In this document: piece by piece, positions 25,931-31,618 of the stretch | Layout of the letters: each line of letters opens with the position of its first letter | Position numbering within the stretch: the first letter of the stretch is position 1 | Source of the DNA: Phenylobacterium sp. | Lineage (GTDB): Bacteria > Pseudomonadota > Alphaproteobacteria > Caulobacterales > Caulobacteraceae | Assembly (NCBI RefSeq): GCF_030645195.1 | Contig: NZ_JAUSLW010000111.1 | Coordinates: forward strand, 1,885-65,884 | Length of the DNA stretch: 64,000 nt | Direction of reading: 5' to 3' | Program-made: the position numbers and the translations under genes | Notes under the pieces: generated by a model | The model's database searches: none | Seen by the model: only the letters and a program-made list of their open reading frames with translations | Told to the model about the DNA's origin: nothing

Positions 25931-26188
25931 TCATGGGGGCGGCGCGGCGCCCTTGCGCGCCAGATAGGCGACTAGCGAGGCGAGGCTGGCCAGCTTGGCG
26001 GCGTCCGCGTCGGGGATGTCCACGCCCAACCGTTGGTGCAGCGCCGTCAGCAGGTTGAGGAAGTCCATGGAATCGAGGTCGACCTGCTCCCGAAGGTCGA
26101 GCGCGGGATCGAGGGTCTCGAAGGCGATCTCCGGAGCCAGGCGCGCGAGCTCATCGCGGATCACGGCGAGGATGTCAGCCTCGTTCAT
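25931..26188 (-). CDS. Acyl carrier protein
   Basis: DLDSMDFL phosphopantetheine site; 85 aa and acidic. Confidence 0.88.
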   Translation of the reverse strand: MNEADILAVIRDELARLAPEIAFETLDPALDLREQVDLDSMDFLNLLTALHQRLGVDIPDADAAKLASLASLVAYLARKGAAPPP

Positions 26189-27345
26189 AGGGACTCCGGG
26201 GTCTGCAGACGTCGGCCGACCTCGGCCAGGAACAGCGCGCCCCGGTGGCCGTCGCTGACGCGATGATCGGCCGCGAGCGTCAGGCCGACCACGGGCCTGG
26301 GCCCGATGGCGCCGTCGACGACCCAGGGGCGTTCGACCACCTTGCCGAAGCCGACGATCGCCACCTGGGGCGGATAGATCACCCCAAACAGCGCCTCGAC
26401 GCCCCGGTCCCCCAGGCTGGAGACGGTGAGGGTCGGGTCGGCGATCTCGGAGCTACGGAAGCGGCCGGCGCGGACCCGGCCCACCAGGTCGCGCATCTGC
26501 GCCATGAGGGTCTCCAGGCTGAGGTCGGCGGTGTCGTGGATGGCCGGCGCCGCCAGGCCGCCGCCGCGCAAGGCGATCGCCATGCCGACATGGACGGCGG
26601 CGCTGGGCCGGAAGGCGCCGTTCTCGAAGAATCCGTTGAATTCCGGATAGGCGCGGGCGGCCAGCGCCGTCGCCTTCACGAAGAGCGCGCCCATCAGCAG
26701 GCGCGTCTCGGGCGGTCGCTCGGCGTTGGCCGCGGCCAGCCAGTCACGGGCGGCTGTGATCTCGACCGTGTCGGAGAGGTAGTAGTGCGGAATCTCGTGC
26801 TTGGAGCGCGACATGGCCGCGGCGATCGCCGCGCGCATCTGGCTGAAATCGAAGGGCGCGGCGGCCGGCGCCGCCGGCGGGGCGGCGGGCAGGTCGGCGA
26901 GCTGGATCGCGCCGCCCGGGCCCGTGCCGGTCAGCGCCGCCAGGTCCAGGCCACGCTCGGCCGCCAGGCGTCGCGCCGCCGGAGAAATCCGCACCCGCCC
27001 GGCCGGGGACGGGTGCGTCACGGACGGCGGGGCGGCGGGCGCGAGGGTTGGCGCTGCGGGCGGAGGGCGATCGACGGGCGGTGGAATGGCTTGCGCCTGC
27101 GCCGGTTCGCCCTCCGTACGGATCATGGCGAGCGGGGCGCCGACGGGCACGGTGGCGCCCGGCTCCGCCAGGAGGCGCTCCACCGTTCCGGCCTCGAAGA
27201 TCTCGATCTCGATGGCGCCCTTCTGGGTCTCCACCACCGCGACGATGTCTCCGCGCTTGACCGCCTGGCCCGGTTTCACGAGCCACTCCACGAGGGCGCC
27301 CGCCTCCATGTCCGCGCCCAGCGACGGCATGCGGAACTCGCCCAT
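26185..27345 (-). CDS. 2-oxoacid dehydrogenase E2 (dihydrolipoamide acyltransferase)
   Basis: Lipoyl domain VETQKG, E3-binding-like SPAARRLAAERGLDL..GTGPGG, catalytic DHRVSDG. Confidence 0.92.
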   Translation of the reverse strand: MGEFRMPSLGADMEAGALVEWLVKPGQAVKRGDIVAVVETQKGAIEIEIFEAGTVERLLAEPGATVPVGAPLAMIRTEGEPAQAQAIPPPVDRPPPAAPTLAPAAPPSVTHPSPAGRVRISPAARRLAAERGLDLAALTGTGPGGAIQLADLPAAPPAAPAAAPFDFSQMRAAIAAAMSRSKHEIPHYYLSDTVEITAARDWLAAANAERPPETRLLMGALFVKATALAARAYPEFNGFFENGAFRPSAAVHVGMAIALRGGGLAAPAIHDTADLSLETLMAQMRDLVGRVRAGRFRSSEIADPTLTVSSLGDRGVEALFGVIYPPQVAIVGFGKVVERPWVVDGAIGPRPVVGLTLAADHRVSDGHRGALFLAEVGRRLQTPESL

Positions 27346-27347
27346 GG

Positions 27348-29351
27348 TCAGGCGCGCCCCAGGGCGGCCTTGGCCGCGGCGACGATCTTGTCGGCCTGCG
27401 GCAGGGCGGCCTCCTCAAGGTGGCGAGCATAGGGGATCGGAACCTCCTGGCTGCAGACCCGGGCGGGCGGGGCGTCCAGTTCGAAGAAGGCCTGTTCGAC
27501 GATCCGCATGCCGATCTCCGCGGCCAGGGCGCCCGAGCGCCAGCCTTCGTCGACGATCACCGCGCGGCGGGTCCTGGCGACGGAGGCGAGGATGGCGGCC
27601 TCGTCGAGGGGCCGCAGCACCCTCAGGTCCAGCACCTCGGCCTCTATGCCGTCGGCCGCCAGGCGCTCGGCCGCCTCCAGGGTCTTCCACAGCGAGCCGC
27701 CATAGGTGATCAGGCTGATATCCTTGCCCGGCCGGCGGACGGCGGCCTTGTCGATGTCGACGGCCCCAGCGTCGGGGGAGAGCAGGCCGGTCCGATTGTA
27801 GAGCATGACGTGCTCGAAGATCAGCACCGGGTCCGGCTCCTGCAGGGCGGTCCAGAGCATGCCGCGGGCGTCCTCCACCGTCGCTGGGGCGAGGATGCGC
27901 AGGCCGGGAATGTGGGCGTACCAGCCCTCCAGGCTGTGGGAGTGCTGGGCGGCGAGCTGGCGGCCCGCGCCGGTGGCCATGCGGATCACCAGCGGGCAGC
28001 CGAACTGGTTGCCCGACATGTGGCGGATGGTGGCGGCGTTGTTCAGGATCTGGTCGAGGGCCAGCAGGCTGAAATTCACCGTCATCAGCTCGACGATGGG
28101 CCGCATCCCGGCCATGGCGGCGCCCAGGCCGGCGCCGGTGAAGGCCGATTCCGAGAGCGGGGTGTCGCGGATGCGGGCGGCCCCGAACTCGTCGAGCAGA
28201 CCCTTGGAGACCGCGTAACAGCCGCCGTACTTGCCGACATCCTCGCCCATCAGGAAGACCCGCTCGTCGCGCAGCATCGCGTCGCGGATTCCCTGCCTGG
28301 CGGCCTCGCGATAGGTGATCTCCTGCGGCGTCGCGGCCGATGCGGCGATTTCCGGGGCCGGCGGACGCTCGGGCGCACAGACATATTTGGCGAGATCGGC
28401 CACCGGCTCCCACGGCGCGGCCTCGGCGAAGGCGACCGCGGCGCTGACCTCCGCGGCGGCTTGCGCCTCCAGGCGCACGACGTCCTCGGCGTGGAGGAGA
28501 TTGGCCGAAAGCGCCCAGTCCCGGAATCGCGAGATCGGGTCCTTGGCCTTCCAGGCCTCGACCTCGGCCTTTTCCCGGTACAGCTGGGCGTCGAACATCG
28601 AATGCGCTCGGAACCGGTAGGTGCGGCACTCCAGGAAGAAGGGCTTGCCGGTCTCCCGGATCGCCGCGATCGCCCGCCGGGCCGCGGCTTCCACCGCCAC
28701 CACGTCCATTCCGTCCACGACCTCCGAGACGATGCGATAGCTCTCGGCCTTGAGGTGGATGTCGGTCTCGGCCTCCGAGCGATCAAGGGCCGTGCCCATG
28801 GCGTAGCGGTTGTTCTCGCAGACGAAGAGCACCGGCAGGTCCCAGAGCGCGGCCAGGTTCAGGCTCTCGTGGAACTCGCCCTCGGCCACCGCGCCCTCGC
28901 CGAAGAAACAGGCGGTGACGTTGTCTTCCTGGCGCAGGTGATCGGCCAGGGCCAGACCCGCGGCCACCGGCAGGCCGCCGCCGACGATGGCGTTGCCGCC
29001 GTAGAAGTTCGCCGCCCGGTCGAACAGGTGCATCGAGCCGCCGCGCCCGCCGCTGCAGCCGGACTGCTTGCCGAACATCTCGGCCATGACGGCGGTCATC
29101 GGCACGCCGCGGGCGAGCGCATGGCCGTGCTCGCGATAGGTGGCGACGACCCGGTCGCGGGACTCCAGCAGCGGGACGACGCCGACGGCGATCGCCTCCT
29201 CCCCGTCATAGAGGTGCAGGAAGCCGCGGATCTTCTCCTGGGTGTAGGCCTCGGCGCAGGCTTGCTCGAAGGCGCGGATGCGGATCATGCGCCCCAGCTG
29301 CTCGCTGACATGGGCGTGGGACAGGTGGGGCTTCAGGGCGTTGTCGCTCAT
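27348..29351 (-). CDS. Pyruvate dehydrogenase-like E1 with alpha and beta subunits fused (667 aa)
   Basis: Alpha part: RGFLHLY, GEGA..ENN ThDP motif. Beta part starts near 28325: TYREA, DTPLSE. No stop between them; ATG overlaps the acsA stop. Confidence 0.9.
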
Positions 29352-31105: not shown

Positions 31106-31107
31106 GG

Positions 31108-31563
31108 TCAGGCCAGGGAGTCGGCGTCGCCGTCGACGTCGGGCCGGACCGCCTCGGGCGGCAGGGCGATCCGGTTGTCCACCGACCGGACGCCGGGGAG
31201 GGTCCAGGCGAGCCGCTCGGCGGCGTCGCGATCGAACCAGCTCGCCGCCCGGCCAGACAGGATCACCGCGCCGCCGGCTTCCGCGACCTCGACGCCGTCA
31301 CAGGGTACGCCCTCGCGCCCCAGCAAGGTCAGGAGACGGGTCCGGGCGTCTCCCGGTGGCGAGGCCACCTCCAGGTGGTTGCGGACATCGAGAACCTCGG
31401 GGAGCCGCAGCAATTCCTGCTCGATCAGGACGCGCCGCATCTCGTCGGGAACCGAGCCCGTGAGGGTCACGACGCCCTCGAAGACCGCAGCGGTGATCGC
31501 GCCGCCGCCGCCCAGGCGCTCAAGCTCGACGGTGACGATGTCCTGGAGGGCCTTGTCGTTCAT
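31108..31563 (-). CDS. Double BON-domain protein
   Basis: Two GxVxLxG..(A)..xPGVxxVxNxL-type repeats; start at 31563 or 31566. Confidence 0.8.
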
Positions 31564-31618
31564 CACAAACCTCGCATGCTGCGACGGTCGAACACTGGGG
31601 TGTTCAGGCGGGGCCGCA

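Follow-up and report, generated by a model that had tools for sequence, protein, structure and literature searches.

Our results lead us to conclude with high confidence that AcsA, the E1 and E2 components of a pyruvate dehydrogenase (PDH)-type system and a small acyl carrier protein (ACP) are encoded together in a real, conserved and mobile four-gene cassette. The Caulobacterales copy described here lies on the minus strand of a 64,000-nucleotide stretch of Phenylobacterium sp. DNA (assembly GCF_030645195.1, contig NZ_JAUSLW010000111.1), which we refer to as the window. We found no paper on an AcsA-E1-E2-ACP cassette in the full-text literature searched, and papers on the B. cenocepacia lxa locus and on the FnrL and Dnr regulons do not mention it. 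The original prediction made from the letters of the window, that clusters of this kind have no settled function, agrees with this literature, and the cassette is apparently an unstudied variant of the PDH system. We tentatively favor a model, to which we give somewhat less than even weight, in which the four proteins form an ACP-centred shunt that converts pyruvate to acetate, in that direction, when oxygen is low.

Conservation and mobility of the cassette

A check of open reading frames (ORFs) in the window returned five ORFs on the minus strand at 25931-31566. They had been described as five tightly coupled genes, and their coordinates and all four junctions proved correct: going from the BON gene to the ACP gene, gaps of 2 nt (first and third junctions) alternate with overlaps of 4 nt (second and fourth). 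The genes, and the smaller features on which the argument depends, are as follows.

31619-31632, minus strand: FixK/FNR-type box TTGATGGATCGCAA, its centre ~59 nt ahead of the BON start codon
31108-31566, minus strand: BON protein, 152 aa, two PF04972 domains (E = 1.1e-20)
29348-31105, minus strand: AcsA, 585 aa, GTG start, an NF003313/PRK04319 acetate--CoA (coenzyme A) ligase
27348-29351, minus strand: fused PDH-type E1 alpha-beta, 667 aa, TIGR03182 and PRK09212
28797-28901, minus strand: thiamine diphosphate (ThDP)-binding motif ending in CENNRYAM, E1 residues 151-185
26185-27345, minus strand: lipoyl E2 dihydrolipoamide acyltransferase, 386 aa, three Pfam domains
26890-26988, minus strand: peripheral-subunit-binding domain, E2 residues 120-152, with G-A-I against the canonical G-R-[IV]
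26185-26208, minus strand: shortened E2 C-terminus (...LQTPESL-stop), the last two hydrophobic knob residues missing
25931-26188, minus strand: stand-alone ACP, 85 aa, PF00550 (E = 2.7e-9)

The sequence motifs singled out at the outset, GEGA at E1 residue 151, VETQKG around E2 Lys42 and DLDSMDF around ACP Ser40, are all present. No signal peptide is evident in the BON protein, and a scan of the operon for sigma-70 promoters and terminators gave nothing useful.

We scanned one genome per species and recovered 80 loci. With the window, two loci from assemblies and two from plasmids counted in, 58 loci have an E1 identity of at least 60% and enough contig, and these are treated here as module loci. 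In 58/58 module loci AcsA lies directly upstream of E1, and E2 and then ACP lie directly downstream, an invariance that places the arrangement far beyond chance. Similar clusters had been anticipated in other bacteria, and these 58 loci with one and the same four-gene order confirm it. The hosts comprise Alphaproteobacteria, Vibrio/Photobacterium, Halomonas, Marinobacter, Betaproteobacteria, Deltaproteobacteria/Myxococcota, Nitrospira (including Ca. N. defluvii), Caldilineaceae/Chloroflexota and Actinomycetota, at least six phyla overall. Plasmid-borne copies occur in Leisingera, Sulfitobacter, Rhodococcus, Cupriavidus, Burkholderia, Streptomyces, Sinorhizobium fredii and the strict anaerobe Desulfotalea psychrophila. 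On a tree of E1 sequences the module E1s form one clade, far from the housekeeping PDH of the Phenylobacterium genome. The tree conflicts with taxonomy, since Rhodococcus is sister to Curvibacter and Halomonas falls into two clades, and this argues for horizontal transfer of the cassette. Fused E1s that are at most 50% identical, from Rokubacteria, Verrucomicrobia and Christensenellaceae, have neither AcsA nor ACP alongside.

No flanking gene family is present in more than ~10 of the 58 loci, which leads us to define the unit as the four genes. The BON gene, originally counted as an operon member, is indeed the first gene here but falls outside this conserved core: it lies directly ahead of the cassette only in the window and in its two nearest relatives (L005 and L006; 3/58 loci) and is a lineage-specific local addition to the operon. 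Co-occurrence of five genes, as first envisaged, therefore holds for AcsA-E1-E2-ACP (58/58) but not for BON (3/58).

The operon was also predicted to have no dihydrolipoamide dehydrogenase (Lpd, or E3), and a gene for this enzyme is absent both from the operon and from the whole window contig. This absence extends to the family, with an E3 gene within 8 kb in 1-2 of the 58 module loci; among the 14 non-module fused-E1 loci, 5 have one directly after E2. Many 2-oxoacid dehydrogenase operons are without an E3 of their own. The genome (3.94 Mb in 232 contigs, ~92% complete) has two Pyr_redox_dim genes in all, both on other contigs, one beside pdhA/pdhB/pdhC and the other beside sucB, and a short contig carries a canonical long-type Acs. 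With a PDH and its Lpd, and a canonical Acs, already in the genome, the cassette duplicates existing functions. Acetate kinase (PF00871) was not found in this ~92% complete genome. The two PTA_PTB matches are proteins of 766-775 aa that we take, by their size, to be malic-enzyme fusions. With no acetate kinase found, the conventional ATP-yielding route from acetyl-CoA to acetate (Pta-AckA) is seemingly absent.

The enzymes and their carrier protein

The fused E1 scores 434 bits with the TIGR03182 hidden Markov model (HMM) for PDH E1 alpha (cut-off 394) and 391 bits with PRK09212 for E1 beta (cut-off 321), the alpha part spanning residues ~1-330, the linker ~331-343 and the beta part ~344-667. 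Among solved structures it comes nearest to human PDH E1 alpha (243 bits) and beta (276 bits); the E1 alpha of branched-chain 2-oxoacid dehydrogenase (BCKDH) scores 136 bits. By these measures the cassette E1 is PDH-type. The chain has more than 5000 homologues, and the best 120 of them are 74-97% identical, 576-673 aa long and nearly all full length. The fusion of alpha and beta, emphasized in the original prediction, is a real single chain of 667 aa but not a defining trait, as 36 module loci have a fused E1 and 22 a split one. In 7 of the split loci nothing more than an in-frame stop stands between alpha and beta, and fused and split forms are interleaved on the E1 tree, with several fusion/fission events. 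A sequencing or assembly artefact as the source of the fusion is ruled out by 36 independent fused loci, complete genomes and plasmids among them. Likewise GEGA, at first thought unusual, turns out to be an ordinary variant: across the module family the motif reads GEG ~30 times and GDG ~27 times with its NN part invariant, and this free alternation rules out GEG as a disabling change. In an uncultured gammaproteobacterium (L048, 5576-8797) E1 and E2 are apparently one ORF with an aberrant E2 C-terminus, which represents either a further fusion or an assembly frameshift.

The nearest described relatives of the cassette in overall design are QncN/QncL/QncM and SclQ1-4 of Streptomyces natural-product pathways, in which an E2-like protein delivers a C2 acyl unit to an ACP (PMC6335953). 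As in the cassette, a ThDP-dependent E1-like protein, a lipoyl E2-like protein and a small ACP are encoded together. However, those systems use ketose phosphates, form glycolicacyl-ACP and reside inside nonribosomal peptide synthetase (NRPS) clusters, whereas the cassette has a PDH-type E1, an acetate ligase, no assembly line and a home in stress islands across phyla. By analogy, the substrate of the cassette E1 could be something other than pyruvate (a ketose phosphate, as for QncN, or acetoin or hydroxypyruvate), with the ACP carrying another C2 unit. QncN/L/M-type proteins do place a glycolicacyl unit on an ACP, and AcsA of the B. subtilis type has historically been tied to acetoin utilisation. 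The E1 alpha, however, is above the PDH equivalog cut-off and much closer to human PDH than to BCKDH E1, and the partner ligase has an acetate-sized pocket; we consider a non-pyruvate substrate highly improbable.

AcsA scores 889 bits with the curated NF003313 acetate--CoA ligase HMM (cut-off 729), and its best solved relative is the 572-aa AcsA of PDB 9g79, with which it aligns end to end at ~55% identity (E = 8.6e-161). The motifs FTSGTTGxPKG and SGKIMRR (with the catalytic Lys) and residue Arg534 are kept in 57-58 of the 58 loci. The acetate pocket is intact (WVTG, the V of SVGEP and the W of WWQTETGG), its conserved residues being the equivalents of S. enterica Acs Val310, Thr311, Val386 and Trp414. 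Because all of these are kept, we regard the enzyme as acetate-specific; by motif and closest relative, the window ligase is an AMP-forming enzyme of the Bacillus subtilis type. It has all the ANL core motifs and the acetate pocket of B. subtilis-type AcsA (PDB 9g79) and differs from it in its setting, as the cassette AcsA always comes first in a PDH-ACP unit. Arg534 is invariant and takes the place of S. enterica Arg584, a contact to the CoA 3'-phosphate; its retention means that CoA may be the true thiol substrate. S. enterica Acs has a CoA-site loop with Arg191 and Arg194 that is missing here, which offers no clue, because genuine B. subtilis-type AcsA is also without the loop.

Two ligases provide partial parallels. 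Citrate lyase ligase CitC uses acetate and ATP to acetylate the carrier-protein thiol of the ACP CitD, and Acs1 of Syntrophus aciditrophicus is reportedly an AMP-forming enzyme that runs in reverse, making ATP from an acetyl thioester, AMP and pyrophosphate (PPi). CitC belongs to another protein family and Acs1 uses CoA, and unlike the cassette ligase neither is linked to an E1/E2 pair.

The ACP is an acidic protein of 85 aa (pI 4.3) with its phosphopantetheine-attachment Ser40 in DLDSMDFLNL, and the motif D[LI]DSMDFLN[LF] is kept across the module loci. None of the specific NCBIfam ACP models reaches its cut-off with this protein. Nearly all of its relatives are stand-alone and 80-110 aa long. 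The nearest that are not (P0122, P0126, P0141 and P0202) contain 5-13 tandem ACP-like stretches in proteins of 557-4019 aa and are reminiscent of polyunsaturated fatty acid (PUFA) or polyketide synthases. The view that the ACP is a dedicated stand-alone member of the operon is upheld by its presence in 58/58 loci, and its pairwise distances correlate with those of AcsA, E1 and E2 (r = 0.67-0.69). A role as octanoyl donor for lipoylation is unlikely: the ligase pocket is acetate-sized, and LplA/LipB are only occasional neighbours.

In the model first put forward, two parallel routes, acetate adenylation by the ligase and 2-oxoacid (here pyruvate) decarboxylation by E1/E2, would load acetyl groups onto the ACP; taken further, this calls for a biosynthetic consumer encoded elsewhere, such as one making a storage lipid or a polyketide-like product. 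The obligatory place of the ACP in the cassette, the tandem-ACP megasynthase-like proteins among its relatives and the E1/E2-to-ACP precedent in secondary metabolism (PMC6335953) are all compatible with this scheme. It is set back by the neighbourhoods, as the 55-58 loci compared show no conserved ketosynthase, acyltransferase or other consumer in the 8 kb around the cassette, and by the fact that the cassette crosses phyla and plasmids as four genes only, which makes a universal, unlinked consumer of a divergent ACP unlikely. We judge loading for an outside consumer to be quite unlikely.

E2 has three Pfam domains: PF00364 Biotin_lipoyl, with Lys42 in VETQKG; PF02817 E3_binding; and PF00198 2-oxoacid_dh, with His361 in DHRVSDG. 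Its scores fall below the equivalog HMM cut-off (208 vs 445), and its closest solved structures are the mitochondrial-type 60-mer PDH E2s. The catalytic His, Asp and Ser (DHRxxDG) and the lipoyl Lys are kept across module E2s. The lipoyl motif follows T-[QDESN]-K-[GA] in the family, and ETQKG, pointed out at the outset, is its commonest form.

New here are two family signatures of E2: a clipped knob and an Arg-to-Ala change in the subunit-binding domain. In ~47/58 module E2s the C-terminus reads ...LLQxP-E-x-L and stops, two residues short, as it does in 0/8 comparators. The eight, which comprise six E3-linked non-module E2s and the genome's own PDH E2 (E2p, EDPITMIV) and 2-oxoglutarate dehydrogenase E2 (E2o, EDPERLLLDI), all end P-x-x-[LM]-[LIV]-[LV]. 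Five residues follow this Pro in human E2p and three in the window E2. In E2p this short C-terminal helix is the hydrophobic knob of a knob-into-hole contact between trimers, its properties are conserved in all E2p, and CoA reaches the active-site channel of E2 from inside the hollow core (PMC8421416). The second signature lies at the Arg of G-R-[IV], which is Ala in 50/58 module E2s and Arg in 2; Arg is found in 11/13 comparators, namely E2s of fused-E1 loci with a linked E3, together with E2p and E2o of this genome. We take this residue to be Arg156 of the Geobacillus stearothermophilus domain, presumably among those that form salt bridges to E3 and E1. Because the knob is clipped, the binding-domain Arg changed and E3 absent nearby, the sequences suggest that the module E2 forms a non-canonical assembly, which may be open rather than cage-like. 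An open assembly, in turn, could allow the acidic 9-kDa ACP to reach the CoA side of the channel.

These features bear on an alternative in which E1/E2 and AcsA are ordinary low-oxygen or stress isoenzymes that make acetyl-CoA from pyruvate (with host Lpd) and from acetate. The ACP would then have an accessory role, as a regulator or assembly factor or in something that has no connection with acetyl transfer. The mitochondrial/alphaproteobacterial-type PDH complex (E1 alpha2beta2, lipoyl E2 and Lpd) resembles the cassette in that the cassette E1 scores above the PDH cut-offs. It differs in that the cassette always comes with AcsA and a private ACP, almost never has E3 nearby and forms an extra copy in stress islands, with an E2 that is two residues short at its C-terminus and has the binding-domain Arg replaced by Ala, and with an E1 that is fused here. 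That E1 and AcsA both pass curated cut-offs, for PDH and acetate--CoA ligase, that every catalytic motif is kept, that AcsA retains its CoA-phosphate Arg and E2 a recognisable subunit-binding domain, and that two Lpd genes are available in the genome all fit isoenzymes well. However, this alternative provides no reason for an invariable, translationally coupled ACP (58/58 loci), leaves the family-wide loss of the E2 knob residues and binding-domain Arg unaccounted for, and has to add a second PDH and a second Acs to a genome that has both. We therefore regard it as somewhat unlikely.

Low-oxygen boxes and stress-gene neighbours

The box upstream of the operon in the window is conserved in three Caulobacterales lineages. 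Its half-sites (TTGAT-N4-CGCAA) recur with another spacer upstream of the first cassette gene in Phenylobacterium L006 (TTGATCAAACGCAA) and in Brevundimonas denitrificans L007 (TTGATCCAGCGCAA), and the Brevundimonas locus has the box although it is without a BON gene. Among 46 proteobacterial loci, TTGAT-N4-ATCAA occurs within 300 nt upstream with at most one mismatch in 13 (expected 0.023 per 300 nt) and with at most two mismatches in 31 (expected 0.126): predicted FNR/FixK boxes are enriched upstream of cassette operons. In the window alone a loose box pattern gave 6 matches vs 4.7 expected, which is not significant. A DosR-type box was not found upstream of two actinobacterial cassettes, with fewer matches than in shuffled sequence.

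Elsewhere in this genome, near-consensus boxes lie 50-100 nt upstream of genes for a ccoN-type oxidase, a rubrerythrin, two Crp/Fnr regulators, a tandem universal stress protein (USP) and a protein of ~500 aa with a C-terminal AAA_33 kinase-like domain (T31; C155, ~26904). An FNR-type box also precedes the gene of a KatG-like catalase-peroxidase, whose identity is judged from sequence only. The N-terminal part of T31 resembles a 342-aa Pfam-less protein that adjoins the cassette in six other loci. The cassette in this genome is thus placed, by prediction from its FixK/FNR-type box, under low-oxygen-type control.

The neighbours of the cassette point in a similar direction; the original prediction for the operon mentions neither the box nor this low-oxygen and stress-gene setting. 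At least one stress gene (with USP, Hsp20, CBS, Crp/Fnr, PpsA, BON, DUF2267, NAPRTase and Rv2632c-like proteins as seeds) lies within 8 kb in 28/58 module loci and 0/14 controls, a count that is biased in that the seeds were chosen from module loci. Phosphoenolpyruvate (PEP) synthase (PpsA) is the most frequent functional neighbour. Representative loci contain the following.

Leisingera plasmid: ppsA, pfkB, USP, Hsp20, CBS and Crp/Fnr genes
Rhodococcus sp. DK17 plasmid pDK1 (L086): ppsA, pfkB, USP, and a GAF sensor kinase with a response regulator
L086, 5881-6237: Rv2632c-like gene (PF08962), overlapping the acsA start
L086, 11881-14431: P-type ATPase with a C-terminal hemerythrin domain, downstream of ACP; unannotated and apparently frameshifted
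S. fredii plasmid: BON, DUF2267, USP, NAPRTase, Hsp20 and FtsH genes
Desulfotalea psychrophila conjugative large plasmid (L090), 11496-12506: lipoate--protein ligase directly after ACP, with no E3 nearby

The gene content of pDK1 presumably resembles the mycobacterial DosR regulon. In its neighbours and its upstream FNR/FixK boxes the cassette is like the low-oxygen and dormancy islands of Proteobacteria (FixK/FNR) and Actinobacteria (DosR-type), and none of the papers searched assigns it to such a regulon.

This company raises another possibility, that the lipoyl arm is reduced with pyruvate for the benefit of a stress-defence client, independently of E3 and by analogy with the DlaT-AhpD-AhpC system reported from M. 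tuberculosis, with ACP and AcsA disposing of the acetyl group and recovering energy from it. The systematic absence of E3, the loss of the binding-domain Arg and the stress-island location would suit such a use, as would the rubrerythrin and KatG-like genes (the latter assigned as above) behind FNR-type boxes and the Desulfotalea conjugative-plasmid cassette that brings a lipoate ligase but no E3. Yet no AhpD- or peroxiredoxin-like client is conserved beside the cassette. We think a redox role of this kind very unlikely.

Several observations concern the surroundings of the operon in the window. A second FNR/FixK-like box, TTGAGCCGGATCAA (32301-32314), has one mismatch to the consensus and lies ~55 nt upstream of the ATG of a lipoprotein-like gene without a Pfam match (31692-32246, minus strand); on its other side is a divergent alpha/beta-hydrolase gene (32344-33744, plus strand). 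This lipoprotein-like gene is the next one upstream of the BON operon, and the two may share their regulation. A perfect FNR-type palindrome, TTGATCCCCATCAA (16973-16986), lies between a P-loop kinase-like gene (16356-16982, minus strand) and a small secreted-protein gene (16992-17507, plus strand). Converging on the ACP gene, the plus strand at 18202-25920 encodes a TonB-dependent receptor, an MFS transporter, a carboxylesterase, an AMP-binding ligase and a TetR regulator of the TetR_C_30 type. The make-up of this run suggests the uptake and activation of an ester or acid substrate, apparently with no relation to the cassette.

A possible ACP-centred shunt

Of the original prediction there remain the conserved unit, the obligatory ACP and the systematic absence of E3. 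The place of BON in the core falls away, and the fusion, GEGA and ETQKG are variants within the family. How would such a unit work? We envision a scenario in which the operon is switched on under limiting oxygen and E1 decarboxylates pyruvate, irreversibly, leading to reductive acetylation of the lipoyl arm of E2. The clipped knob and altered binding domain would give E2 a more open, non-canonical assembly, in which the acetyl group could be handed to the private ACP, at its phosphopantetheine thiol, either in place of CoA or in addition to it; QncN/L/M and SclQ1-4 offer the precedent for this step (PMC6335953). AcsA would then interconvert acetyl-S-ACP and acetate plus ATP, the likeliest reaction being acetyl-ACP + AMP + PPi to acetate + ATP + ACP. 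The dihydrolipoyl arm would be re-oxidised by host Lpd or another partner. Taken together, the cassette would constitute a self-contained, energy-conserving shunt from pyruvate to acetate that makes no draw on the CoA pool.

Beside the unity of the cassette, the altered E2, the low-oxygen context and the apparent lack of a conventional route from acetyl-CoA to acetate, three considerations lead us to prefer the ACP-centred shunt. First, the E1 step sets the direction, so net flux would run from pyruvate to acetate with formation of ATP. Second, the lack of a conserved consumer near a mobile unit favors a closed system with small-molecule inputs and outputs. Third, PEP synthase is AMP-linked as well as a frequent neighbour, which fits an AMP-scavenging scheme. 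The most explicit form of the proposal is a CoA-independent shunt tethered to the ACP, with a probably trimeric, open E2, AcsA reversed on acetyl-S-ACP, PEP synthase maybe reversed too, and ATP made from AMP; we hold this combination to be unlikely.

A number of points weigh against the shunt. AcsA is ~55% identical to a genuine acetyl-CoA synthetase, and its true thiol substrate may be CoA. The E2 subunit-binding domain is still recognisable and the nearest E2s are core-forming 60-mers; if a closed core is formed, the CoA side of the channel would be open to the ACP only from within the cavity. The roles of the two lost C-terminal residues and of the binding-domain Arg are assigned by homology and from earlier work on Geobacillus stearothermophilus and Thermoplasma proteins. 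A mirror-tree search for the partner of the ACP gave correlations that are all alike (r = 0.67-0.69), with weak and similar partial correlations, and no ACP-E2 or ACP-AcsA gene fusion occurs in the 58 loci or among the 150 best ACP relatives. The NADH that a PDH produces sits poorly with limited oxygen, and the ATP-forming direction of an AMP-forming ligase is one reported for Acs1 of Syntrophus aciditrophicus. Finally, the absence of ackA is not certain in a genome that is ~92% complete, and the stress-neighbour count has the seed bias described above.

PDH and acetyl-CoA synthetase are among the best-studied enzymes, and a version that always travels with its own ACP has seemingly never been examined, despite a spread over hundreds of species in at least six phyla, often on plasmids and among genes for survival of low oxygen and stress. 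The two E2 signatures, a clipped knob and a binding-domain Arg replaced by Ala, translate into concrete structural hypotheses. If the ACP replaces CoA, the cassette would represent a new wiring of a 2-oxoacid dehydrogenase and could be a new substrate-level route to ATP in non-growing bacteria. A route of this kind would be relevant to persistence, to the ecology of nitrifiers and marine bacteria and, given the copies on rhizobial plasmids, to microoxic symbiosis. Should the CoA-independent form of the shunt hold, bacterial dormancy islands would house a miniature fermentation that scavenges AMP and is kept apart from the CoA pool.

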